The notes under the pieces are model-generated. The model saw nothing but the letters and a program-made list of their open reading frames with translations. It made no database searches and had not been told where the DNA came from. DNA of 40,603 nucleotides from Dehalococcoidia bacterium (GTDB lineage: Bacteria; Chloroflexota; Dehalococcoidia; E44-bin15), in contig JACUUT010000002.1 of NCBI GenBank assembly GCA_014859165.1, positions 1 to 40,603 on the forward strand, given 5' to 3'. Each line of letters starts with the position of its first letter. Position 1 is the stretch's first letter. Made by a program: the position numbers and the translations under genes. Of the stretch, positions 18,798 to 39,321 are shown piece by piece.

Positions 18798-19077
18798 TAT
18801 ACTTCAGGCATCCCAAAATCAGCAATTGGGGCTTTGTGAGCTGAAAAATTGGCCTGCAGCACTAAATCCCTCGCTTTTCCTACTTTTCCCTCGCTCTTTC
18901 GTTGTAGGAACGACCTCAGGAGGCTATCAAAATACCTGGCATTGCACGCTTCGGGGTATTCATCACATCAATTTCTGGTCTTAGGGTCATACTTATCCTT
19001 TCCCTTTAAGGGCTAATAAGTTAAATGCTTTTATTTCATCCCCCCTGCGCAAAAATTGACGAAGCAAGCGCTCCCCC

Positions 19078-19106
19078 TTTACAAAGGCGGATTTTAGGGC
19101 TAAAAT
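19078..19106 (+). promoter_or_regulatory. candidate promoter of the tRNA array
   Basis: TTTACA (19078-19083), 17-nt spacer, TAAAAT (19101-19106), 12 nt upstream of tRNA-Val. Confidence 0.45.
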
Positions 19107-19118
19107 GGATACGATTTT

Positions 19119-19191
19119 GGGCGGTTAGCTCAGTGGTTAGAGCGCTTGCTTCACACGCAAGAGGTCACTGGTTCAAGTCCAGTACCGCCCA
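19119..19191 (+). tRNA. tRNA-Val (anticodon CAC)
   Basis: Acceptor GGGCGGT/ACCGCCC, anticodon stem CTTGC/GCAAG, loop TT-CAC-AC. Confidence 0.9.
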
Positions 19192-19214
19192 TTTTTGTCC
19201 TGTGTGGTGAAAAA

Positions 19215-19297
19215 GCCGAAGTGGCGGAATGGCAGACGCGCTACGTTCAGGGCGTAGTGTCCTTTAGGACGTGAGGGTTCAAATCCCTCCTTCGGCA
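19215..19297 (+). tRNA. tRNA-Leu (anticodon CAG)
   Basis: Acceptor GCCGAAG/CTTCGGC, long variable arm, anticodon loop TT-CAG-GG. Confidence 0.9.
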
Positions 19298-19385
19298 GTT
19301 CCCAAGTGAGAAAGGCTAACCATTAAGAGAAGGAAAGTTAAACGAATTCTATCGTTGCTTTAAGGATAGCCTTAAGGTCGGAAAA

Positions 19386-19462
19386 GCGCTTGTAGCTCAG
19401 TTGGACAGAGCGTAGCCCTGCGGAGGCTGAGGTCGCGGGTTCGAGCCCCGCCAAGCGCGCCA
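19386..19462 (+). tRNA. tRNA-Arg (anticodon GCG as read), CCA encoded
   Basis: Acceptor GCGCTTG/CAAGCGC, anticodon stem TAGCC/GGCTG, loop CT-GCG-GA, T-loop TTCGAGC. Confidence 0.85.
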
Positions 19463-19463
19463 T

Positions 19464-19536
19464 GGGCGATTAGCTCAGTGGGCAGAGCGTCTGCTTTACA
19501 CGCAGAAGGTCAGAGGTTCAAGCCCTCTATCGCCCA
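19464..19536 (+). tRNA. tRNA-Val (anticodon TAC)
   Basis: Acceptor GGGCGAT/ATCGCCC, anticodon stem TCTGC/GCAGA, loop TT-TAC-AC. Starts 1 nt after tRNA-Arg. Confidence 0.9.
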
Positions 19537-21191
19537 CGAGTTCCTTTGAGGTTTGACTGCCAAAGCCTCAGCAGTTCGAGAAAGGGGCTGTAGCTCAGTT
19601 GGGAGAGCGCCTCCTTTGCACGGAGGAGGTCAGGGGTTCGAGTCCCCTCAGCTCCACCAGGGGTGTCAATAGACAGAACTGGCAACTTCTCTTCAGTCAT
19701 TCCCCCAGGTAGCATAGGTATCGTATAGGTTAATAATACTTCATCTCCGGTTACTTTCACTTCTTTTACGAAGCTTCTAACAAATGATTTCCTCTCGGCA
19801 AGGGAACTCTCGCTCAGCGTATTACGCAGGTCAACCACACATTGAGCTACAGTTTCTGCATCTGCCAGCTCCACACGCCTGTCAGAAAGCTCCTGCTCCA
19901 ATTCCAGTCGTGTTGCCTGCAATTGCTCCTGCCGCTGCCTCAATTGCTGAATCCGTGGCGCCAAATCGGCGAGTTGTATTTTCCCGGTTTCAAGAGCATC
20001 ATATAACCTCTCCAATCGACGGCTCACATCGGCGATATCATCAAGGATGCTGTCCAAACGTTGACGATACTCTATTGCCAGACCATCCATTTCCTCATTT
20101 ACTATATGAACTAGTCTGGTAAGATTCTCAGTAGTTAAGACATGCTCTTTTATCTTATCGATAACCAAGTTCTCAAACTTTTGGCTGTTAAGATAACGGG
20201 TTGGACATGAGCCTGCCCCTTTCTTCGCTAAGGTTCCACACACGTAATAGCTAAATTGTCCGCTCTTAACGTCTAAACCAATAAGAGCCTTGCCACAATG
20301 CCCACACCTGGCCACCCCACTCAGTAAATAGCGACTTGCTACCCGCCTGGGATGAAGGCTGACAGGAGCCCGGTCTTTAAGCAGAATCTGAACCCGGTCA
20401 AAGGTAATTCTGTCAAGAATAGCTGGCCAGGCATTCTCTACCCGAATAGGAGGCAGGTCACGCAAGCTAGATCGACCCCAGACCAGAGTGCCGGTATAAC
20501 ATTCGTTGGTCAGTATCTTACGGATTGTAGTCTTCATCCAGCCCTTGCCTCTGGGACCAGCAATTCCCTCCCTGTTTAGCTGTTTGGCAACCTCCATTAA
20601 ACCCTTCCCTTCAAGCACATGGTTATATATGCAAGCTACGGTTCTAGCCTGATTCGGCTCAACTTCAAGCTTGGGACGATCTTTACTGCCATCGTTGGTC
20701 TTAACCTTGCGATATCCGAAAGGAGCCTGGGCTGAAATATAAAAGCCGCGGGAGGCGCTTTCCCGCATCCCCTTGGTTACCTCTTCCCCGAGATTAGCCG
20801 AGTAAAACTCATCCAAGCTTTCAATCATGGCCTCAAGCAGTTTTCCTGTAGGCGTATCCTCTGCAGGCTCACTTATAGATATCACCCGGATTCCGTTCTT
20901 TCTAAGCATAGTTTTGAAGACTATTGAGTCCTCACGACTGCGGGCGAAGCGTGAATACTTCCAGACCAGAATGAGATCAAACGGCTTCTGAGAGCGACGT
21001 GCGGCTGAGATCATCTCCCGGAAAGCTGGCCGTGCTGTTGTTTTTCCGCTCTCCGCTTCATCTACGAATTCCTTGACTACTTCGTACCCGTTTCTGCCCG
21101 CATATTCTTTCAGTGACTTAAGCTGCGCTGAAATGGAAAGGTCAACATCCTGTTTTTCTGAAGAAACCCTAGCGTAAAGAGCTACTTTCAT
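19527..21191 (-). CDS. large serine recombinase (resolvase N-domain, recombinase domain, zinc ribbon, coiled coil)
   Basis: VALYARVSSEKQ catalytic-Ser motif, a later CGHCGKAL...YYVC zinc-ribbon motif and a long coiled coil. GGAGGAG SD. The last 44 codons are antisense to tRNA-Ala and tRNA-Val. Confidence 0.9.
   Translation of the reverse strand: MKVALYARVSSEKQDVDLSISAQLKSLKEYAGRNGYEVVKEFVDEAESGKTTARPAFREMISAARRSQKPFDLILVWKYSRFARSREDSIVFKTMLRKNGIRVISISEPAEDTPTGKLLEAMIESLDEFYSANLGEEVTKGMRESASRGFYISAQAPFGYRKVKTNDGSKDRPKLEVEPNQARTVACIYNHVLEGKGLMEVAKQLNREGIAGPRGKGWMKTTIRKILTNECYTGTLVWGRSSLRDLPPIRVENAWPAILDRITFDRVQILLKDRAPVSLHPRRVASRYLLSGVARCGHCGKALIGLDVKSGQFSYYVCGTLAKKGAGSCPTRYLNSQKFENLVIDKIKEHVLTTENLTRLVHIVNEEMDGLAIEYRQRLDSILDDIADVSRRLERLYDALETGKIQLADLAPRIQQLRQRQEQLQATRLELEQELSDRRVELADAETVAQCVVDLRNTLSESSLAERKSFVRSFVKEVKVTGDEVLLTYTIPMLPGGMTEEKLPVLSIDTPGGAEGTRTPDLLRAKEALSQLSYSPFLELLRLWQSNLKGTRGR
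19584..19659 (+). tRNA. tRNA-Ala (anticodon TGC), CCA encoded
   Basis: Acceptor GGGGCTG/CAGCTCC with the G3:U70 identity pair, anticodon loop TT-TGC-AC. Confidence 0.92.
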
Positions 21192-21222
21192 TGTACTCCT
21201 CCTCTAATAAATCTAGCCTTGT

Positions 21223-22059
21223 TCATAGGGGACAGTACTTGCAGCGACCTGGTACTATCCGCCTGAGTCTTATCACCGCCAGTTCCTCTCTGAGCTTGCG
21301 ACCCAGTCGCCCAATCTCAGCGACTGTTTTTTCTAAATCATGATATGCTTCCCAATCTCTTAGGCTGGATTCCAGGTCATCCAGAACATCCCGCACTACT
21401 TCTTTATACCTCTCGGCATGCTCCGTATCCATTTTACCCATCTGCGAGAAGCCGTAACGAAGATTCACAAACCCCTCTCCGGCAGGCTCAGTGACCAAGT
21501 TATCTTTGAGATTAAGCCCTTTGTACCCCTGGGACCACTGCTTTGCCTGAAAAGCAAGAACACCAATAATGCCAGGGACAACCATATCCATGCCGGCAGC
21601 GACCAGAGTAGTTAACCTGCGATCTGCTTTCGCTTGTTGTTCAATCAATTTTTCCAGTTCCTGTTGCCGTTCGTCCTTTTCTTGGTGGAGGTTATGCCAC
21701 TTCGACATGTAGCTCCATATCGGCGACCGGGGTAGATGCTGTCGCAATGCAGCTCCCATAAGGTCGTAATCTAGTGATGGCGGAACATTGCTCAGTCCTG
21801 ATATCTCCGAATTCAGCATCTCAGCGTAACTGCGTAGATCATCATAGTGGTGCTCCAGCGCATTACGCAGCACAAGCAATCTCGCCTCGCGCACCTCTCG
21901 CTCTTGTTTGGCTATCTCGATCTGCTTGCGAACTGTGCGGACGTCATATCTGTCATTAGCTGCAATTTGAGGGGGAGACTCACCATTCTCCTCGTTAAGG
22001 CGCAGCCATTCCCGGCGCAATTCAGGCTTAATTGGTGGCTTCCTAGTTCTCTTTGCCAT
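21223..22059 (-). CDS. hypothetical HTH/coiled-coil protein co-transcribed with the LSR
   Basis: 278 aa. The N-terminus (ELRREWLRLNEENGESPPQIAANDRYDVRTVRKQI) looks like a small HTH. The middle is charged and helical, and the C-terminus ends CKYCPL. AGGAGGG SD. I recognise no family. Confidence 0.6.
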   Translation of the reverse strand: MAKRTRKPPIKPELRREWLRLNEENGESPPQIAANDRYDVRTVRKQIEIAKQEREVREARLLVLRNALEHHYDDLRSYAEMLNSEISGLSNVPPSLDYDLMGAALRQHLPRSPIWSYMSKWHNLHQEKDERQQELEKLIEQQAKADRRLTTLVAAGMDMVVPGIIGVLAFQAKQWSQGYKGLNLKDNLVTEPAGEGFVNLRYGFSQMGKMDTEHAERYKEVVRDVLDDLESSLRDWEAYHDLEKTVAEIGRLGRKLREELAVIRLRRIVPGRCKYCPL

Positions 22060-22098
22060 ATGCCCTCCTATTAGCTATAAATTGGTATTTATGAGCAA

Positions 22099-22127
22099 AT
22101 TATAACACAGCTAATTCATGATGTCAA
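22099..22127 (-). promoter_or_regulatory. perfect consensus sigma70 promoter for the 278-aa/LSR operon
   Basis: Minus strand TTGACA (22127-22122), 17-nt spacer, TATAAT (22104-22099) with an upstream TG. About 33 nt of 5' UTR before ATG 22059. Confidence 0.7.
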
Positions 22128-22204
22128 GTGCTTATGTGAGTATAATTATATGTATTTTTAATGTCTTAATGATGTTGGCAACAGCATAGTTTCTCGTATA
22201 TAGT

Positions 22205-22402
22205 ATGTTTGTTATGAATTCTAAACCTATTGTAAATCATTTAGAATTGCCGAGTCAAGACGAGAGTGAAATAAGCCGCGCGGATGACGGGTTGCGGCTT
22301 TTGGGCAGGATAATTGCTCGTAACCTCTTAGCTAGACGTTCGGTTCACACCAATAAGAATGATACTAAGGAGAATAATCCACAAACACTGGCGGACAGTT
22401 GA
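22205..22402 (+). CDS. small hypothetical ORF (65 aa)
   Basis: Only an ORF with a TGATG overlap with the downstream recombinase fragment. No recognisable motif. Confidence 0.3.
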   Translation: MFVMNSKPIVNHLELPSQDESEISRADDGLRLLGRIIARNLLARRSVHTNKNDTKENNPQTLADS

Positions 22403-22986
22403 TGAAGACCTATCTTGAAACAGAAGAGATCAATCTAATGGGAGATGCAGCCACCAATCTCAGGGATCGGCTTCTCATTCATATGCTATTTCGATTGAGC
22501 TGTCGTATTAGCGAGGCTCTGGCACTAAAGGTTGAGGATATAGATTTTACACAGGGTACAATTATCATCCAACATCTCAAAGCCCGTCTCAAGCTGTCAT
22601 GCTCCGAGTGCGGGCAAAGACTCGGCAGAAGTCATCCCTTTTGTCCTAAGTGCGGAACTAAAGTGACGAATGCTCAAACCGAGCAGCAGGAACACCACCG
22701 CCAGAGGGTGCTACCCGCTGATAGTGAGACTTTACGCATGCTCAAAGACTATATCCGCCGTGGCGGTCCGGTTCTTCGAGATGGGAAGAGGCTGATTTTT
22801 GGTATTAATAGGCATAGGGCTTGGCAAATCGTCAAAGAATGTGCCGAAAAAGCAGGTTTGCCCCGGCTTCCCAATCCGGAGACGGGCAAGGTGCACAACG
22901 TCAGTCCTGCCCGGCTCCGTGATGCTCGACCGGCTGATGTTCATTTATTTCATCCAGAAGAAAGGCTTTTTGGATGGAGACATTGA
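22402..22986 (+). pseudogene. tyrosine recombinase catalytic-domain fragment with an inserted zinc ribbon, 3'-truncated
   Basis: RDRLLIHMLFRLSCRISEALALKVEDIDF (Arg-I box) and ...VSPARLRDA (box II region). The frame then degenerates with no catalytic Tyr region. CSEC...CPKC insert at 22600-22653. Confidence 0.6.
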
Positions 22987-25450
22987 TTACCTTGCTAATA
23001 AGCTTAGGGAGTCGAAAGCCCGCGGTGCGAACCAGTTCTACCGGAAGTTTCTAATCAGGCTGTTCTTCGAGGGCTTTGCCAAAGAGGATACGGAGCGCTC
23101 CCAAGAGGTAAATCAGCTACTCGGCAAAGTACCATATCTGAATGGTGGCCTCTTCCTGCCTCACCAACTGGAATTAGCGCATGGAGAAAACATCAACATA
23201 ACTGACGCCGCTTTTGAGCAGCTATTCGCTTTCTTTGACCGCTATAGCTGGCATCTAGATTATCGCCCACTGCGGGCGGACAACGAAATCAACCCTGACA
23301 TACTGGGTTACATCTTTGAGAAGTATGTTAACCAGAAACAGATGGGGGCTTACTATACCAAAGAAGATATCACCGATTACATCTGTAAGAACACCATAAT
23401 ACCATTTCTCTTTGATAAGCTTGAGAGCATGCGTTATGACGAACTCCATCCCTTCCCCATGGAGGACATTGAGCCGTACATCTACGAAGCGGTTAAGCAG
23501 GAAGATTACCTGCTCACCGAAACGGAACGGGAATATCAGGCAAGGCGGAAGCGTTACCAGCAGATTAAGCAGGACTTTGCCGCCGGCAAAATCTCCAGCA
23601 TCAACGACTTGATAACCTATAATCTTAACATTCGTAAGTTCGCTGAAGACCGGGCACGCAATATCAAAGACCCCGTTACCCTGCGTGCCTTCTACTTCCA
23701 CTGCCTTACCAAAGTGACTGTCCTTGACCCGGCAGTGGGCAGCGGTGCCTTCCTCTTCGCTGCTCTGAATATGCTAGAGCCACTCTACGAGATATGCCTG
23801 GACAAGATGGAAGAGCTGGGCGGTACCAAGTACCCCGACTTTGCTGAAGAACTGGCCAGAATCCGCCGGCATCCTAACCGCAAGTACTTTGTGCTCAAGA
23901 GCATAATCGTCAACAACCTCTTTGGTGTGGACATTATGGAAGAGGCGGTAGAAATCTGTAAGCTGCGTCTCTTCCTGAAACTTGTCTCTCAGGTCAGTGA
24001 TGTGGACAAGATTGAGCCATTACCGGATATTGACTTCAACATACGTGCCGGGAATTCGCTTGTTGGCTATGTCAATGAAGAAGAGATAAAGAAAGCTAAG
24101 GCAACTCAGCTAGACCTCAGTGGTGCACTCAAAGGAATTGAGGACAGGATAGAAAATGCTGATTGCGCCCTAAAAGCCTTCAGGGACTTGCAGACTAGGC
24201 TTGACATACGCGCTTCAGAGGTTGCCAAAGCCAAGGCGGAGATAAAAGCCAAGCTTGCTGAGATTCAAAAAGAACTGGATAGAGACCTGGCTGCCTTCTA
24301 TGGCGCCCGTGACGTTAAGCAATTTGTGAAGACGCACCAGCCGTTCCACTGGTTTGTTGAGTTTTATGGCATCATGAAGAATGGTGGGTTTGACGTTATC
24401 ATCGGTAATCCACCATACGTAGAATACAGCAAAGTAAGAAATACGTATACTATTAATAATTCAAAGTGCCTGGAGGCTGGCAACCTATACGCTTACATCA
24501 TTGAACGCTCCCTCAATATAGAGCGCTCATATTCTCGACTGGGCATGATAATACAGCTATCTGCATTTTGTACCCCACGTATGAAACCATTTCAGGATGT
24601 TCTGTTTGGATCAACGGACCATATTCATTTGTCGTTCTTTGATGATCGCCCGGGAAAATTGTTCGACGGACTTGAACACATTAGAGTTGCTATTGTACTA
24701 GTTCGAAAAGGTACTGGTTCACCCAAAGTTGCCACAACACGCTATATTAAATTTTCCACAGAAGCTCGCCCATTTCTTTTCGACAGCATTGTCATGCAGG
24801 CTAATGACCGCCCTAGACACGGCAGCAGTGTGCTAAAGGTATCAACCGCAACCGAAAATGAAATTGTCCGAAAGCTCTGGTCGATGAAACATACTTTATC
24901 AGACTATCTTCAGGAAGCCGAGAACAAGAACTTTGTGTATTACGGCTATGGTTTTGGCTATTGGGGCAAAATATTGAACTTCAAATCCTATTTTAGGGGC
25001 GAAAAAGTAAAAGCGTCAACTGGTGATAAATACATATATTGCCAGAAACAACTAGACAGGGATGTAGTTACGGCCATCATGAATTCGTCACTCTTTTATT
25101 GGTTCTATGTTAACTACAGTGACGGGCACAACTTCACAAAGCATGTTATCGGATCATTCCCATTTGAGATACCGGATCCAATAATCACGAATGAATTGAA
25201 AGAACTTTGTTCTCGCCTTATGGTTGATCTTAAGAAAAATACTAGGCGTAAGACGGCTTATTATGCAGCAACAGGACATATCGAGTATGAAGAGTTCTAT
25301 CCAAAGCTCTCTAAATCTATCATAGATGAAATTGACTACGTTCTGGCAAAGCGTTATGGCTTCACAGATGAGGAACTGGACTTCATCATCAACTATGACA
25401 TCAAGTATCGGATGGGTAAAGAGAGCGAGGAGGACAACAATGGTGACTGA
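22922..25450 (+). CDS. N6-adenine DNA methyltransferase, Eco57I/MmeI (type IIG)-like, apparently lacking an N-terminal nuclease domain
   Basis: LDRLMFIYFIQKKGFLDGD and VPYLNGGLF helical-region motifs, motif I DPAVGSGAFLF, motif IV IIGNPPYVEY, and a C-terminal TRD ending DEELDFIINYDIKYRMG. The first in-frame ATG after the junction with the recombinase fragment is 22922; the track start 22799 overlaps the other frame. Confidence 0.8.
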   Translation: MLDRLMFIYFIQKKGFLDGDIDYLANKLRESKARGANQFYRKFLIRLFFEGFAKEDTERSQEVNQLLGKVPYLNGGLFLPHQLELAHGENINITDAAFEQLFAFFDRYSWHLDYRPLRADNEINPDILGYIFEKYVNQKQMGAYYTKEDITDYICKNTIIPFLFDKLESMRYDELHPFPMEDIEPYIYEAVKQEDYLLTETEREYQARRKRYQQIKQDFAAGKISSINDLITYNLNIRKFAEDRARNIKDPVTLRAFYFHCLTKVTVLDPAVGSGAFLFAALNMLEPLYEICLDKMEELGGTKYPDFAEELARIRRHPNRKYFVLKSIIVNNLFGVDIMEEAVEICKLRLFLKLVSQVSDVDKIEPLPDIDFNIRAGNSLVGYVNEEEIKKAKATQLDLSGALKGIEDRIENADCALKAFRDLQTRLDIRASEVAKAKAEIKAKLAEIQKELDRDLAAFYGARDVKQFVKTHQPFHWFVEFYGIMKNGGFDVIIGNPPYVEYSKVRNTYTINNSKCLEAGNLYAYIIERSLNIERSYSRLGMIIQLSAFCTPRMKPFQDVLFGSTDHIHLSFFDDRPGKLFDGLEHIRVAIVLVRKGTGSPKVATTRYIKFSTEARPFLFDSIVMQANDRPRHGSSVLKVSTATENEIVRKLWSMKHTLSDYLQEAENKNFVYYGYGFGYWGKILNFKSYFRGEKVKASTGDKYIYCQKQLDRDVVTAIMNSSLFYWFYVNYSDGHNFTKHVIGSFPFEIPDPIITNELKELCSRLMVDLKKNTRRKTAYYAATGHIEYEEFYPKLSKSIIDEIDYVLAKRYGFTDEELDFIINYDIKYRMGKESEEDNNGD

Positions 25451-27365
25451 ACAGACTGTAAGCTTTGAAGATTTTCGGAACCAGTGGCTCGAAGATATCC
25501 AAAGCGGTAGTCCATCCACCGTCGAGCTGGGCCGCCGCTTCGCTCACAAACTCCTTATCCAGTGGCTGGATATCGAGAGTGCTTCCGACGACCTTGTCTA
25601 TTGTGATGGCAGTGGTGACGGTGGCATAGATATAGCTTACCTAGATCGTGGTGAACGTGGCGATACCGGAGAAGGTGAGGAAGAGTCTGCTGTAGGCCAT
25701 ACCTGGTACATTGTTCAAAGTAAGTATGGGAAAGCCTTTCATGGTACTACCACGCTTCTTGAAGAAAGTCAGAAGGTCATAGAAAGCCTTGATGGTAGAC
25801 GCCCTAAGCTGTCCTCTCTAGCTGAGGGGCTGCTTGAACGGTTAAGCAACTTTCGCAAGCAAGCTTCTGATCGGGACAGAATCCGCCTTGTATTTGCAAC
25901 TGAATTGCCTTTGAGCGAAGAGGAAAAGCAGGTTCTAAAGGATGTTCGTGCGATGGGCCGTGAACGCCTTGGCCCTATTTTTGATGTCGAGTCTATTTCT
26001 ATAGAAACCGTCTATCGGCGTACGCTTGAAGAATTGGTGACCGGTAAAGACCGGATTCGAGTACCGATCAAGGCAAACATGGTGAAATCTGGCGAGGACG
26101 TCTTAGTAGGCACGGTGACACTCATTGACCTCTTTGAATTCCTTAAGGCTTATCGGGATCGTACAGAAGATTTAGACCAGCTTTATGAAAGGAATGTGCG
26201 GCGCTTTCTGGGTGGTCGCGGCAAAATCAATAAAGGAATCCAAGAAACACTGCGCAATGCTCCGGAGCGCTTTGGATTGTATAACAATGGAATCACAATT
26301 GTAGTGACAAATTTTGTACTCAATGGAAATGGGAATATCGAACTAATAGAGCCCTTTGTCGTTAACGGATGTCAGACAACGAAAACCATTTGGGAGATCT
26401 GCTACGAAAAACTAGAAGCTGGTGGTACGGGCACCTCACCAGAATTGGAAGAATGGCGCAAGCGAGCTGGAGAAGGAGTTGTCATAACAAAGATTGTAAG
26501 GGTGGGGGACAATGGAGAAGAACTTGAGCGAGCTATTACTCGGTACACAAATAGTCAAAATGCAGTGAGGGAAAAGGATTTCCTCGCTTTAACTACGGAC
26601 TTTAAGAGATGGGCAAGCCTTATGTCTGAAAGATATGAGGTATTTCTGGAAAGACAGCGCGGTGGCTGGGATTCGCGCCGTGCACTACAAAAACAACGCC
26701 CCGACATTAAAAAATTTACTAAGGCAGCTAATGCCTTTGACTTACTAAAGGTGTACGGCTCGGGATGGCTTGGTGAAGCTGGAACAGCGTTTGGCAAGAA
26801 TGGGCCGTTTGTTCCGAATGGAGCCATATTCAAGAAGATTATGGAACCTGTCGACGGAGAAGATGAATCGTTCGGTGTAGATGACCTTTATGCAGCTTAT
26901 CAGTTACAGTGCGCAGCAGACAAACTTGATTTTGGCAGAGGAGCTGCCAAAATTACGCGCAAACAAACGAAATTCCTTTTCTACATGATTGTAATAGACT
27001 TGCTGAAAGACGTGATGACAAGGGCAGAGATAGCAGCGACTCGAAAAAATTGCACTCGTGCGTTGCTGAAACTCTTCGACGGCAACCACGAGTCAGCGGC
27101 GCAAGCACTACCTGATGCTGCGACGGAGGTGGTAGACGGATACCTTACTTCAGGTACAGATAATTGTGTGTTTGACGAGCCTGCGTATAAGAATACTTTC
27201 AACCATGACTTGAATGCCTTTCTGAAGTGGGAGAAGCTTGGCAAGACTGAAGAGGACTGCCCCCGGTTCCGCAACTTGCTCGCAGTTAACAAGGTCGCTA
27301 TGGGACAAAAAGTAGGAGGTCAGCCATCTATGCGCGAAACCATTAGGACGGCTATTGCTTCCTAA
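25440..27365 (+). CDS. AIPR-family (abortive infection phage resistance) protein with N-terminal Mrr-like nuclease motif
   Basis: YNNGITIV...VVNGCQTT AIPR hallmark. N-terminal DGSGDGGIDIAYLD...WYIVQSKYGK. ATG 25440 is preceded by GAGGAGG and overlaps the methyltransferase stop by 11 nt. Confidence 0.8.
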   Translation: MVTEQTVSFEDFRNQWLEDIQSGSPSTVELGRRFAHKLLIQWLDIESASDDLVYCDGSGDGGIDIAYLDRGERGDTGEGEEESAVGHTWYIVQSKYGKAFHGTTTLLEESQKVIESLDGRRPKLSSLAEGLLERLSNFRKQASDRDRIRLVFATELPLSEEEKQVLKDVRAMGRERLGPIFDVESISIETVYRRTLEELVTGKDRIRVPIKANMVKSGEDVLVGTVTLIDLFEFLKAYRDRTEDLDQLYERNVRRFLGGRGKINKGIQETLRNAPERFGLYNNGITIVVTNFVLNGNGNIELIEPFVVNGCQTTKTIWEICYEKLEAGGTGTSPELEEWRKRAGEGVVITKIVRVGDNGEELERAITRYTNSQNAVREKDFLALTTDFKRWASLMSERYEVFLERQRGGWDSRRALQKQRPDIKKFTKAANAFDLLKVYGSGWLGEAGTAFGKNGPFVPNGAIFKKIMEPVDGEDESFGVDDLYAAYQLQCAADKLDFGRGAAKITRKQTKFLFYMIVIDLLKDVMTRAEIAATRKNCTRALLKLFDGNHESAAQALPDAATEVVDGYLTSGTDNCVFDEPAYKNTFNHDLNAFLKWEKLGKTEEDCPRFRNLLAVNKVAMGQKVGGQPSMRETIRTAIAS

Positions 27366-27517
27366 TTGTATGGGGCCACCTGTAAGTAAAGAGAGCATCG
27401 AATATATTCAAGAGCATTGGCCTGTAACTGTGGAAACAAGAGCGATCACACTACGCGTCAGATTGTGCAATCGATGGCCTTTGCAATCCATAAGATGCAA
27501 ATAGCGAAATACGCCTA

Positions 27518-37973: not shown

Positions 37974-39321
37974 TCAATGACCATGATTACGGCTGCTATG
38001 AGGAGAAAGGCTGAAGGCTAGGCTAAAAGTTCTGCGTATTGTACACGGTGGCCCACCAAAGGTGACTTTTGCAAAACCGTCCTGCTCCCTCACTTTGTTT
38101 ACTCGGGCAAGATTCAACCGGCAACATATCTTCCTCGTCTTCAAGTCCTCGGACGGCAGGACCTTGAGTCCCAGCTTAGCAATTAGTTCTGCCTTCTCCT
38201 CAAACGCCGCTTCTCGCAGATTACGATCACGAAGAATCCTCAACTGCTCTCGCAGCTCGGCCTCAATGGTGCTAAGATCCTTGTTCGTCATCTGGTCTTG
38301 AAGCCCTTTGATCTCTGCCTCCGCCTTAGCAATGGTCCCCTGGTGCTCAGCAATCCTGGTTCTGACATCATCTGGGTTGTAGAAACCCTTCTCCCATCCC
38401 TCATGCACCTTGCCGATGCGGATTCTTGCCTGACTAATCTTCACCTGCTCCAACCTTATCAGTTGCTCAATATCCTCAGCCTTGGAGGAGTCCGCTGTTA
38501 ATTGCTGTTCCAGCCAGGCATCGCTACTCAGCATAGTGCAAATTTCCTCCCAGATCTCGTCATCCCAGGTTCCTGGAACAAACCGATTGTAGGTGCAAGG
38601 GTCTTGCAGCCAGAGGCAGTAGTGTGCCCGACAGTAGTAATAAACTTGGTCACTACCCCTCTTCTGCAGCACGGACATCGGCTTTCGGCATCGCGGGCAG
38701 AGCATCCGGCCTCGGAACAACGCGGGTATTCTTTTGCCCTGCTTACCCCGGCCGCGACCTCTTTCCCTGAGATTGTTATTGGCCCTTAGCCACCGCTCCT
38801 CAGTAGTAAGAGTTGGCACCTCGAATGTCACCTTCTCGCCACCGGGCTTTGGCCGCACGAGGGTCCTTTTTATGCCCAGAGTCAAGTCACCCAGGAGCCT
38901 GTCAGGGTTCGGAACGCGACCATTGGCGTTGTATTCACCCTGCCCCGTATAGCATTTGTGACTAGCAATAAGGAATAATGACTCCAGCTATACGTCTACC
39001 AGCTATCAGCTCTTTACACAGACGGGTAATGCCAGGGCGATTTAAGTCCTCGCTTGACTCAGCATCATATATCACGTATTCCCGGGGAATAATCGCGCCA
39101 TTTGGCCTGGTCAGTTTCGCACATGAAAGCAGATACTCCCCTAGTCGGTCATTCTCCGCCTGCTCCCGCGTGGATTGTCTTGTGTATGCGGCCCACCAAT
39201 GCTTCAGGTTTAAGTCGCACCCTCTCACGCCGAACCCCTGCTCGCAGCCAGCTGCTTTCGCTGCCTCTACAACATAACGGTCCAGACGTTCCTTACTCAT
39301 GGCTTCTATCGTCTGAGTCAT
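37974..39321 (-). pseudogene. large serine recombinase, frameshifted and internally deleted
   Basis: N fragment 38962-39321 (AAYTRQSTREQ catalytic Ser region...VIIPYC*). C fragment 37974-38885 (CPRCRKPM...YYYCRAHYC zinc ribbon plus coiled coil). The C frame is open from about 38965 in the +1 frame. Only about 75 aa separate the resolvase core from the zinc ribbon, against about 210 aa in the intact LSR. Confidence 0.7.

Follow-up and report, generated by a model that had tools for sequence, protein, structure and literature searches.

Defence genes can lie embedded in restriction-modification (R-M) or BREX loci, as PrrC does in EcoprrI and the GmrSD-type BrxU in BREX. A link between AIPR proteins and R-M systems has been noted previously (PMC3632139). 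AbiU of Lactococcus lactis defends as a single protein and is predicted to have a nuclease-like fold; AbiUi alone gives resistance, and in its AF2 model it is similar to the FokI nuclease (PMC13064643). Single-gene phage resistance has been demonstrated for lactococcal AbiUi only (PMC13064643).

The window, that is, the whole 40,603-nucleotide stretch analysed here, carries a methyltransferase (MTase) gene that overlaps an AIPR gene. A first-pass annotation read the two as a modification component plus a separate effector, forming a candidate two-gene cassette of no characterised system type. Rather than a new two-gene defence system, the pair is an AbiU-like gene together with the stump of a restriction-like MTase. 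With a probability of about 75%, what remains here is the 3' corner of a larger restriction-like operon that has decayed, together with an AbiU-like gene that probably acts autonomously, on a tRNA-side island. The result is mainly corrective, in that a tidy-looking coupled pair is the product of a rearrangement; without this correction it would be entered among candidate new defence systems.

Genomic island and recombinases

The pair sits on a horizontally acquired low-GC island of about 8 kb, beside a tRNA cluster. The GC content drops from 0.54-0.59 to 0.42-0.51 between ~19.7 and 27.5 kb. The part of the island that precedes the pair has the following features.

19118..19659, + strand: five tRNA genes (Val, Leu, Arg, Val, Ala; ARAGORN), left edge of the low-GC island
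19527..21191, - strand: large serine recombinase (Pfam Resolvase 3.9e-34, Recombinase 6.7e-21, Zn_ribbon_recom 6.6e-12)
21223..22059, - strand: island-borne ORF of 278 aa, no family match in Pfam, PADLOC or NCBIfam
22399..22914, + strand: tyrosine-recombinase fragment with a zinc-ribbon insert (Pfam Phage_integrase, NCBIfam XerA partial)

The serine recombinase is likely the island integrase. Its 3' end lies antisense over tRNA-Ala and the end of tRNA-Val, and its NCBIfam matches to CcrB and XisF were both below cut-off. Only weak and unconvincing att-like repeat matches of 14-24 nt were found flanking the island. The tyrosine recombinase is cut ahead of its catalytic Tyr, with Phage_integrase covering only profile positions 3-64 of 172 (Pfam) and XerA positions 93-150 of 263 (NCBIfam). 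Its ORF continues to 22986 through MTase-derived sequence, and the translation ends in ...VSPAR/LRDARPADVHLFHPEERLFGWRH, without a Tyr.

Methyltransferase gene

The features of the pair and its borders are as follows.

22909..22915, unstranded: breakpoint between the recombinase fragment and the 5'-truncated MTase (blastn and alignment to intact loci)
22915..25450, + strand: 5'-truncated PglX/Eco57I-like N6-adenine MTase with TRD, corresponding to residues ~200-1048 of intact relatives
24454..25246, + strand: divergent stretch in the TRD region of the MTase, exchanged relative to L001 and L088, common to L007 and P0002
25427..25450, + strand: GAGGAGG Shine-Dalgarno sequence (25427-25433) and MTase stop/AIPR start overlap (25440-25450)
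25440..27365, + strand: complete AIPR/AbiU-like protein of 641 aa (Pfam AIPR, PADLOC AbiU)
27366..27424, + strand: downstream tail common to other AIPR contigs, right end of the AIPR module (blastn)

The earlier assignment to MTases of the MmeI/Eco57I type, with motif I, NPPY and a TRD, was confirmed by Pfam (Eco57I, E=4.7e-26; MmeI_Mtase, E=9.5e-7) and by the PADLOC type IIG model PDLC03628 (E=8e-228). Motif I (VLDPAVGSGAF) is located at 23720-23752 and NPPY at 24404-24421. The ORF has 842 codons and is fully open. Possible starts are TTG 22799, from which the ORF is open, ATG 22922 and TTG 22970; the public gene call (P0001, 826 aa) uses the last of these.

The gene was 5'-truncated at ~22914 by a rearrangement onto the tyrosine-recombinase fragment. 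Homology to intact loci begins at 22912-22916 in every relative (blastn), with 22914-22916 for L001, L007, L088, L089 and L096, and the alignment with L096 is near-identical from ~22914 and unrelated before that. No match to 19000-22911 was found in any of 167 fetched loci (blastn). Since nearly all of the best 120 MTase homologs are 1030-1110 aa long, compared with 842 aa in the window, ~199 codons are missing. Full-length relatives read ...AWYASVMLNRLMFIYF; the window protein agrees only from SVMLDRL onward. In the AF2 model of one full-length relative (P0005), an N-terminal alpha/beta domain (1-135) and two helices precede the break, which falls within helix 192-214. The short form is unique to the window contig, and no helicase or DprA-like remnants were detected anywhere in the window. 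It had been observed earlier that the protein begins at LDRLMFIYF and lacks a cleavage module. This is true, and the cause is the 5' truncation; the start assumed then, ATG 22922, is only one of the three possible.

A natural family of short MTases was ruled out, the homologs being ~200 aa longer. Of the few homologs that are shorter, most come from short contigs or carry a partial flag.

Deviations are found at 3 of 224 conserved columns (family range 1-17). Because the remnant keeps all its catalytic motifs and has no excess of substitutions, it may be a pseudogene of recent origin or an orphan MTase that has survived. The stretch 24454..25246 is unalignable to L088 and aligns throughout to L007 at 77%; P0005 and the window protein also differ there.

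AIPR protein

The partner is an AIPR protein, as first annotated (PF10592, E=5.3e-43, 148 bits against a cut-off of 25). It also matches PADLOC AbiU (PDLC02357, E=7e-35; residues 33-424, profile positions 27-396 of 537), a named single-gene system. MzaE was matched at 4e-14 in PADLOC and 8.8e-18 in NCBIfam. The protein belongs to a distinct, well-conserved subfamily of ~640 aa from Chloroflexota-type metagenomes, and the AIPR proteins of a plasmid collection were all distant from it, with no more than 26% identity. Matches of the downstream tail to L091-L094 and L125 reach 27417-27424 and then end (blastn).

A D...QxK motif lies in the N-terminal part (25602-25640, 25704-25730) and NGCQTT in the AIPR domain (26358-26381). 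Invariant residues are D56, D60, D64, Q93, K95, N309, G310, Q312 and T313. The AF2 model has a pLDDT of 80 and a predicted alpha-beta-beta-beta-alpha order at the N-terminus. Because of the invariant D...QxK, this predicted order and the published AbiUi model (PMC13064643), the protein is read as a putative nuclease whose N-terminal domain looks like a PD-(D/E)xK fold (D64...Q93-x-K95). For the N-terminus, Pfam gave nothing relevant at E up to 10. In PDB profile searches the whole protein matched nothing, and the N-terminal 210 aa matched only repeat proteins, spuriously. Foldseek gave no match to the whole model at E<=0.001; the best had E>0.1 and included weak ones to Mus81 and CdiA-CT.

Gene junction

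The stop/start overlap at 25440-25450 with GAGGAGG just upstream was correctly described at first and is conserved in relatives. The AIPR frame opens at ATG 25440, GAGGAGG lies 6 nt upstream of it, and the MTase ends in ...N-N-G-D-TGA (TGA 25448-25450), which gives an 11-nt overlap, ATGGTGACTGA. The overlap is kept in L001-L006 and L089-L096, relatives down to ~80% DNA identity, and is therefore not a chance feature of one sequence. In more distant MTase-AIPR pairs the genes do not overlap and are 26-127 nt apart. Translational coupling of the two genes is plausible from these data, and to that extent the suggestion that both proteins are made together stands; the dedicated pairing that it implied is not supported by the neighbourhoods described below.

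Parent operon and gene neighbourhoods

The intact order is found in contigs L001-L006: a PLD(HKD)-SNF2 helicase-nuclease (~1130 aa), a PglX/BrxX-like MTase with TRD (~1040-1100 aa) and AIPR. Among species-level loci of the MTase family in other genomes, 69 of 70 have the PLD-SNF2 helicase-nuclease gene upstream in the same orientation, and 1 of 61 has AIPR downstream of the MTase. When the neighbours of 80 loci were clustered, three families recurred and no others: the helicase, the MTase and a DprA-like gene. The DprA-like gene is 3' of the MTase in 38 of the 80, at distances from a 49-nt overlap to ~10 kb downstream, and the interval between them carries GajA/OLD-like, GmrSD, Schlafen/AlbA_2 and PIN genes. 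To judge by gene order, AIPR is probably an accessory cargo gene in this variable slot.

The species-representative genome collection contains at least 586 stretches that encode an MTase relative, and the parent operon (helicase-nuclease, PglX-like MTase, variable defence-cargo slot, DprA-like gene) is widespread. Assignment to Hma/BR/MANTIS, DISARM or BREX was rejected because their defining partners are missing. No named system of PLD-SNF2 helicase, PglX-like MTase and DprA-like gene was found in the literature searched, absence there being no proof. The operon could serve as a minimal comparator for hemimethylating, helicase-coupled systems.

Viewed from the AIPR side, an Eco57I-like MTase is located upstream in 11 of 47 loci of the subfamily, and the window's own clade accounts for 6 of these; about three quarters of the AIPR relatives have no such MTase adjacent, and no MTase is near most of those with 53-76% identity. 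Other neighbours are gyrA, a peptidase, NAPRTase and integrases, and in L140 and L103 AIPR is immediately 5' of a gene of the DprA-like family described above. AIPR relatives occur just downstream of Eco57I-like MTases from at least three or four lineages, namely the window family, L108/L163, L134 and L100. In L092, L093 and L094 it stands behind MTase stumps corresponding to residues 844-1048, 939-1048 and 944-1048 (105-205 aa). The window locus is a mosaic, with AIPR nearest to L088 (90% DNA identity), the MTase core to L096 (87%) and the TRD to L007; as the closest relatives of AIPR and MTase differ, there is no co-evolution.

Since AIPR is mostly without the MTase or behind short stumps, it is independent of that MTase, and its survival of repeated independent MTase loss is comparative evidence for autonomous action. 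AIPR thus appears to be an AbiU-like accessory that is optional and is usually found alone. This persistence after MTase loss is informative, with modest value, on a poorly understood family. The first-pass annotation had named unlinked homologs and a match to an already named system as grounds for abandoning its proposal; with the weak linkage in both directions and the AbiU match, these grounds largely apply. A dedicated system of modification component and effector is not supported, the conserved partner of the MTase being the helicase-nuclease and AIPR standing mostly alone.

Origin of the locus and alternative explanations

According to the preferred reading, the ancestor was an operon of helicase-nuclease, MTase and AIPR as in L001-L006. 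In the window the helicase-nuclease gene and the first ~199 MTase codons are missing, and a rearrangement has joined the remainder to the tyrosine-recombinase fragment; with these parts gone, the restriction arm would have been lost as well. AIPR, complete and with its own ribosome-binding site, most likely acts alone like lactococcal AbiU. It would be a single-protein nuclease-type effector, whose central AIPR domain, ParB-like in the literature, may serve as a nucleic-acid or NTP sensor. Some observations speak against this reading. The clade-wide overlap and strong Shine-Dalgarno sequence also fit co-translation of interacting partners, the recurrence of AIPR behind several MTase lineages may exceed what island co-localisation produces, and the open MTase ORF, conserved like its intact homologs, would fit a functional orphan MTase, perhaps even one that cooperates with AIPR. 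The database searches also gave no support for the nuclease reading of the AIPR N-terminus.

The same overlap and Shine-Dalgarno sequence, conserved in the close clade, would be expected if AIPR were a guard or backup effector like PrrC with EcoprrI, co-made with the MTase, restrained by it and freed once a phage anti-restriction protein disables the MTase or helicase complex; in the window AIPR would then be either orphaned or still restrained by the truncated MTase. The position of AIPR 3' of several unrelated Eco57I-like MTases is in line with this, as are the backup effectors beside BREX-related MTase/helicase systems in a 2026 survey (PMC12839542) and the fact that the phage inhibitor Ocr is known to target BrxX/PglX, the closest solved structure to the MTase (PDB titles). 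Such a role is nevertheless unlikely, because the majority of AIPR relatives in the 53-76% identity range lack a neighbouring MTase, AIPR persists behind 105-205-aa stumps incapable of regulating it, AbiUi works alone (PMC13064643), and the distant pairs are spaced by 26-127 nt without overlap. It is somewhat harder to credit that AIPR has been repeatedly recruited to the 3' ends of PglX/Eco57I-like MTases, in no fewer than three or four lineages and, in this clade, translationally coupled, as a backup nuclease monitoring the MTase or the helicase complex, with the shortened, well-preserved window MTase still its DNA-recognition or regulatory partner. If true, the decay of a restriction operon would have given rise here to a minimal MTase-guided Abi module.

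A working cassette, with the shortened MTase modifying host DNA and AIPR attacking whatever DNA is unmarked, could draw on the intact catalytic motifs and absence of decay in the MTase, the tight gene coupling and the nuclease-like motifs in AIPR. It is very improbable: AIPR without a cognate MTase would be lethal, yet this is the commonest arrangement; the conserved MTase partner is the PLD-SNF2 helicase-nuclease; the short MTase occurs only here and stems from a breakpoint within a helix; and the nearest relatives of the two proteins differ, without co-evolution. Least credible of all is a metagenome assembly chimera at ~22914 that hides an intact operon. The window is a complete 40,603-bp assembled contig, which would allow for such an artefact, but the two sides of the junction have at most a few bases in common, far below an assembler k-mer, GC is equally low on either side, and the MTase gene is independently truncated in other contigs. 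The decayed operon with an AbiU-like gene is retained as the best explanation.

Comparison with known systems

The window AIPR protein resembles lactococcal AbiU in its profile match and differs from it as a distinct ~640-aa subfamily. The Mza system has the AIPR domain of MzaE in common with it; the NCBIfam MzaE score was 64 bits against a cut-off of 1050, and no MzaA-D, Z1 or MutL-like genes were found.

Among modification-based systems, BREX has the MTase that is closest in structure. PglX/BrxX is the top structural match of the full-length relative (9ewz, E=2e-14, ~1100 columns) and the sole significant PDB sequence match (8c45). Both families have an N-terminal domain, a helical domain, a gamma-class MTase and a TRD. 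PglX, the best structural match, is not a nuclease. The MTase scored 59 bits against the NCBIfam BREX-1 PglX model (BREX_1_MTaseX; cut-off 500). Unlike in BREX, the window lacks PglZ, BrxC, BrxA, BrxB and BrxL and the relatives do not conserve them, no brx gene is among the window ORFs of at least 400 aa, all of which were identified, and the partner of the MTase family is a PLD-SNF2 helicase. DISARM class 1 (DrmA, DrmB and DrmC with DrmD and DrmMI) was not found: DrmD reached 137 bits against a cut-off of 610, PADLOC DrmMI matched part of the protein below threshold (E=7e-27), and neither DrmA nor DrmB is conserved in the neighbourhoods.

The intact relatives resemble the DUF499-centred MANTIS, Gao_RL and type-2 BREX-related systems, their PglX-like MTase being similar to MtsC and their N-terminal HKD/PLD plus SF2/SNF2 helicase-nuclease to MtsD. 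They differ from MANTIS in that no DUF499 AAA+ ATPase (MtsA) or DUF3780/3870 protein (MtsB) is conserved in 80 loci, and a DprA-like gene and the cargo slot often follow; the window has the MTase remnant only.

Type IIG/IIL enzymes (MmeI, Eco57I, DrdV) are similar by the Eco57I, MmeI_Mtase and PDLC03628 matches and by Foldseek, which finds DrdV and MmeI. As in type IIG, gamma-class N6-adenine motifs and a TRD are in one chain. An N-terminal endonuclease in the same chain is absent from the window protein, which is without its N-terminal ~199 residues, and the 135-aa N-domain of the full-length family has no conserved PD-(D/E)xK triad, the conserved residues being E87, H88 and W102. The nuclease of the MTase family is carried on the separate helicase protein.

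PrrC- and BrxU-type loci resemble the parent operon in that a modification-based defence operon contains, or ends with, an accessory effector gene, and the cargo slot of the relatives also bears GmrSD, GajA-like and Schlafen-like genes.

Gene pair and features

The locus is a decayed restriction-like operon followed by an AbiU-like gene that is probably autonomous, and both constituents belong to known kinds. Its features are as follows.

19118-19659, five-gene tRNA cluster, left start of the low-GC stretch
19527-21191, minus strand, large serine-recombinase ORF
22175-22204, sigma-70-like site
22399-22986, ORF of the tyrosine-recombinase fragment; zinc-ribbon insert at 22591-22674 (residues 65-92)
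22915-25450, plus strand, Eco57I/PglX-like N6-adenine methyltransferase (MTase) gene
23720-23752, MTase motif I
24404-24421, MTase NPPY
24454-25246, target recognition region (TRD) stretch of the MTase
25053-25389, weaker sigma-70-like sites
25440-27365, plus strand, AbiU-like AIPR gene, 641 aa
37974-38885, minus strand, 303-aa ORF

The identities given to both genes by the first-pass annotation were borne out. The MTase matches the Pfam Eco57I (E=4.7e-26) and MmeI_Mtase domains and PADLOC type IIG model PDLC03628 (E=8e-228), with motif I and NPPY present; the downstream protein matches Pfam PF10592 (E=5.3e-43). The stop/start overlap also stands: the MTase frame ends N-N-G-D-TGA at 25448-25450, the AIPR ATG is at 25440, 11 nt are common to both (ATGGTGACTGA), and GAGGAGG at 25427-25433 lies 6 nt 5' of that ATG. 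LDRLMFIYF does follow the proposed MTase start, ATG 22922, but this codon is one of three candidates; the frame is already open at TTG 22799, and TTG 22970 is the start in the public gene call.

Truncation of the MTase and genomic setting

Judged by its sequence, the MTase of the window is a truncated gene. Nearly all of its best 120 homologs are 1030-1110 aa long, versus 842 aa in the window. The sequence in full-length relatives is ...AWYASVMLNRLMFIYF; the window protein aligns with them only from SVMLDRL on. DNA homology to intact loci begins at 22914-22916, with identities of 81% (L001/L088), 87% (L096) and 77% (L007). At the junction, near-identity with L096 starts at ~22914 and the sequences 5' of it are unrelated; DNA comparison of 19000-22911 with 167 fetched loci gave no match. 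Left of the junction lies a tyrosine-recombinase fragment, cut ahead of the catalytic Tyr, in which the Pfam match is confined to positions 3-64 of 172 and that of NCBIfam XerA to 93-150 of 263. Since the recombinase is cut before its Tyr and MTase homology starts at ~22914, both genes end at one rearrangement junction; that the two unrelated sequences were instead joined there by a chimeric assembly is unlikely. The zinc-ribbon insert (Zn_ribbon_3, Zn_Ribbon_1, DZR) in the catalytic domain of the fragment is unusual for that family.

When full-length relative P0005 is modelled with AlphaFold2 (pLDDT 80, pTM 0.72), the break maps inside helix 192-214, so that the N-terminal alpha/beta domain (1-135) and two more helices are lost. 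The remnant keeps all family-invariant residues, and of 224 highly conserved columns it departs from the family at just 3 (family range 1-17); either the cut is recent, therefore, or selection still acts on the remnant.

The pair sits in a ~8-kb stretch of lower GC (0.42-0.51 versus 0.55-0.59 in the flanks), together with the large serine recombinase and a 278-aa ORF without a family match. Elsewhere the window encodes housekeeping functions and anaerobic metabolism (rpoB, rpoC, EF-Tu, purA, aldehyde:ferredoxin oxidoreductases, hybrid-cluster protein). At its 3' end the serine-recombinase ORF runs antisense across tRNA-Ala (19584-19659) into tRNA-Val (19464-19537); the tRNA cluster may have been the integration target of the island, the attachment site then lying within the recombinase gene. 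The ORF at 37974-38885, whose only domain is a recombinase zinc-ribbon (E=3.2e-5), may be a second, degraded serine-recombinase gene. The site at 22175-22204, a consensus match only, could give rise to a transcript that crosses the recombinase fragment and reaches the pair.

Parent operon

In the closest intact loci (L001-L006), three overlapping genes encode a helicase-nuclease (1134 aa; RE_NgoFVII/PLD and SNF2/Helicase_C domains), the MTase (1048 aa) and an AIPR protein (643 aa). The MTase census comprised 80 loci of many phyla from a collection with one genome per species, in which at least 586 stretches encode MTase relatives. Of the 70 loci with sufficient upstream sequence, 69 have the helicase-nuclease preceding the MTase in the same orientation; the window holds no helicase remnant. 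Structure comparison of the full-length MTase model ranks BREX BrxX/PglX first (9ewz, E=2e-14), followed by CamA, DrdV, LlaBIII and MmeI, and PglX was the sole significant match in a PDB sequence search. The N-terminal domain of the family lacks a conserved PD-(D/E)xK triad, nor was a fused cleavage domain seen in the MTase; in the intact system, cleavage would most likely be the task of the PLD domain in the helicase protein.

The operon is widespread (L008-L087, e.g. L027:3000-10500 and L045:6300-13853). Its parts are the PLD-SNF2 helicase-nuclease, a PglX-like MTase of ~1100 aa, a slot with variable cargo and a DprA-like gene of ~210 aa. A Ktedonosporobacter contig (L058:6135-19325) has one helicase gene amid three MTase paralogs (1104, 1119 and 854 aa), possibly the result of duplication or a means of switching specificity. 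A 213-264-aa protein with PF03118 (RNA polymerase alpha C-terminal domain, E=9e-21) adjoins the helicase gene in some Poribacteria-type loci, either between helicase and MTase (L010, 9229-9963; L011; L085, 9324-9962) or just upstream of the helicase (L024).

The DprA-like gene (PF02481, E=2.9e-11) follows the MTase in the same orientation at 38 of the 80 loci, at distances from a 49-nt overlap to ~10 kb. The genes between them are almost all on the same strand and include known defence families.

Table. Defence-type cargo between MTase and DprA-like gene (L010, L012, L014, L015, L026, L030, L039, L044, L050, L052, L057, L060, L085)
GajA/OLD-like AAA_15/AAA_21 ATPases: 5 of 53 cargo genes; best PADLOC GajA E=6.5e-131
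Schlafen/AlbA_2 (+HATPase_c_4): 5 of 53
GmrSD: 3 of 53
PIN; TPR proteins

The interval looks like a defence-cargo hotspot inside the operon. AIPR lies directly upstream of the DprA-like gene in L140 and L103, within this slot of varied cargo, which makes it one among many interchangeable pieces of cargo. In L001 (9400-10515; same in L088), the closest intact operon, the gene after AIPR encodes an HTH_3 + Peptidase_M78 protein (PADLOC RmrA E=1.5e-29, CapP weaker), of a regulator type also found in CBASS and further defence loci; the gene is absent from the window.

AIPR with and without an MTase

The first-pass annotation had taken the two genes for a dedicated two-gene defence cassette, a modification MTase with a separate effector. 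The linkage counts do not support this. AIPR lies downstream of the MTase in 1 of 61 loci having enough downstream sequence; conversely, 80 metagenome loci encoding AIPR relatives (53-93% identity) were compared, and of the 47 whose upstream sequence reaches 1.5 kb or more, 11 have an Eco57I-like MTase core preceding AIPR in the same orientation. The window's own clade accounts for six of these 11, and the rest have different MTase lineages: 744 aa in L108 (559 aa in L163, outside the 11), 1232 aa with a different helicase in L134, a more distant MTase in L100, and members of the window's MTase family at ~45% identity in L140 and L142. The remaining AIPR loci have gyrA, peptidase, NAPRTase, integrases or other defence-type genes as neighbours.

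Three loci retain AIPR behind MTase 3' stumps of just 105-205 residues (L092:524-1147, residues 844-1048; L093:1277-1594, residues 939-1048; L094:5573-5887, residues 944-1048), truncations independent of that in the window. An AIPR promoter may lie in the ~320 nt that these stumps retain; the weaker sigma-70-like sites, consensus matches only, fall within this stretch at the MTase 3' end. The closest relative of the window's AIPR is L088 (90% DNA identity) and that of its MTase core L096 (87%); the TRD stretch, not alignable to the closest operons L001/L088, is common only to L007 (MTase P0002). This TRD exchange and the differing closest relatives make the locus a recombination mosaic. Together, the low linkage, the stumps and the mosaic structure argue that AIPR would not need the MTase for self-protection or activity. 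An AIPR serving as a guard or backup beside MTases is given only a small chance, and an autonomous AIPR is preferred.

PADLOC assigns AIPR to AbiU (E=7e-35) and more weakly to MzaE, for which the NCBIfam score is far under the cut-off. AbiU is treated as a single-component system in a 2026 review; AbiUi on its own confers resistance and delays phage transcription, and its AlphaFold model resembles the FokI nuclease (PMC13064643). An earlier survey gave AbiU1/AIPR a ParB-like nuclease domain and described frequent linkage to R-M systems (PMC3632139). The subfamily invariants are D56, D60, D64, Q93 and K95, together with NGCQTT in the AIPR domain. An AlphaFold2 model (pLDDT 80) places these five residues on a predicted alpha-beta-beta-beta-alpha unit, the same arrangement as a PD-(D/E)xK or Mrr-type site. 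Pfam, PDB profile searches and Foldseek did not confirm a nuclease fold, and the mechanism is therefore one that we infer: AIPR would be an autonomous nuclease-type effector carrying a sensing domain.

Comparison with known systems

No name for the parent operon was found in the literature searched, and by membership tests it falls outside BREX, DISARM and Mza. It differs from MANTIS/Gao_RL, a type-2 BREX-related system, in lacking the defining DUF499 ATPase and DUF3780/3870 protein, but resembles it in pairing a PglX-like MTase with an HKD/PLD-SF2 helicase-nuclease.
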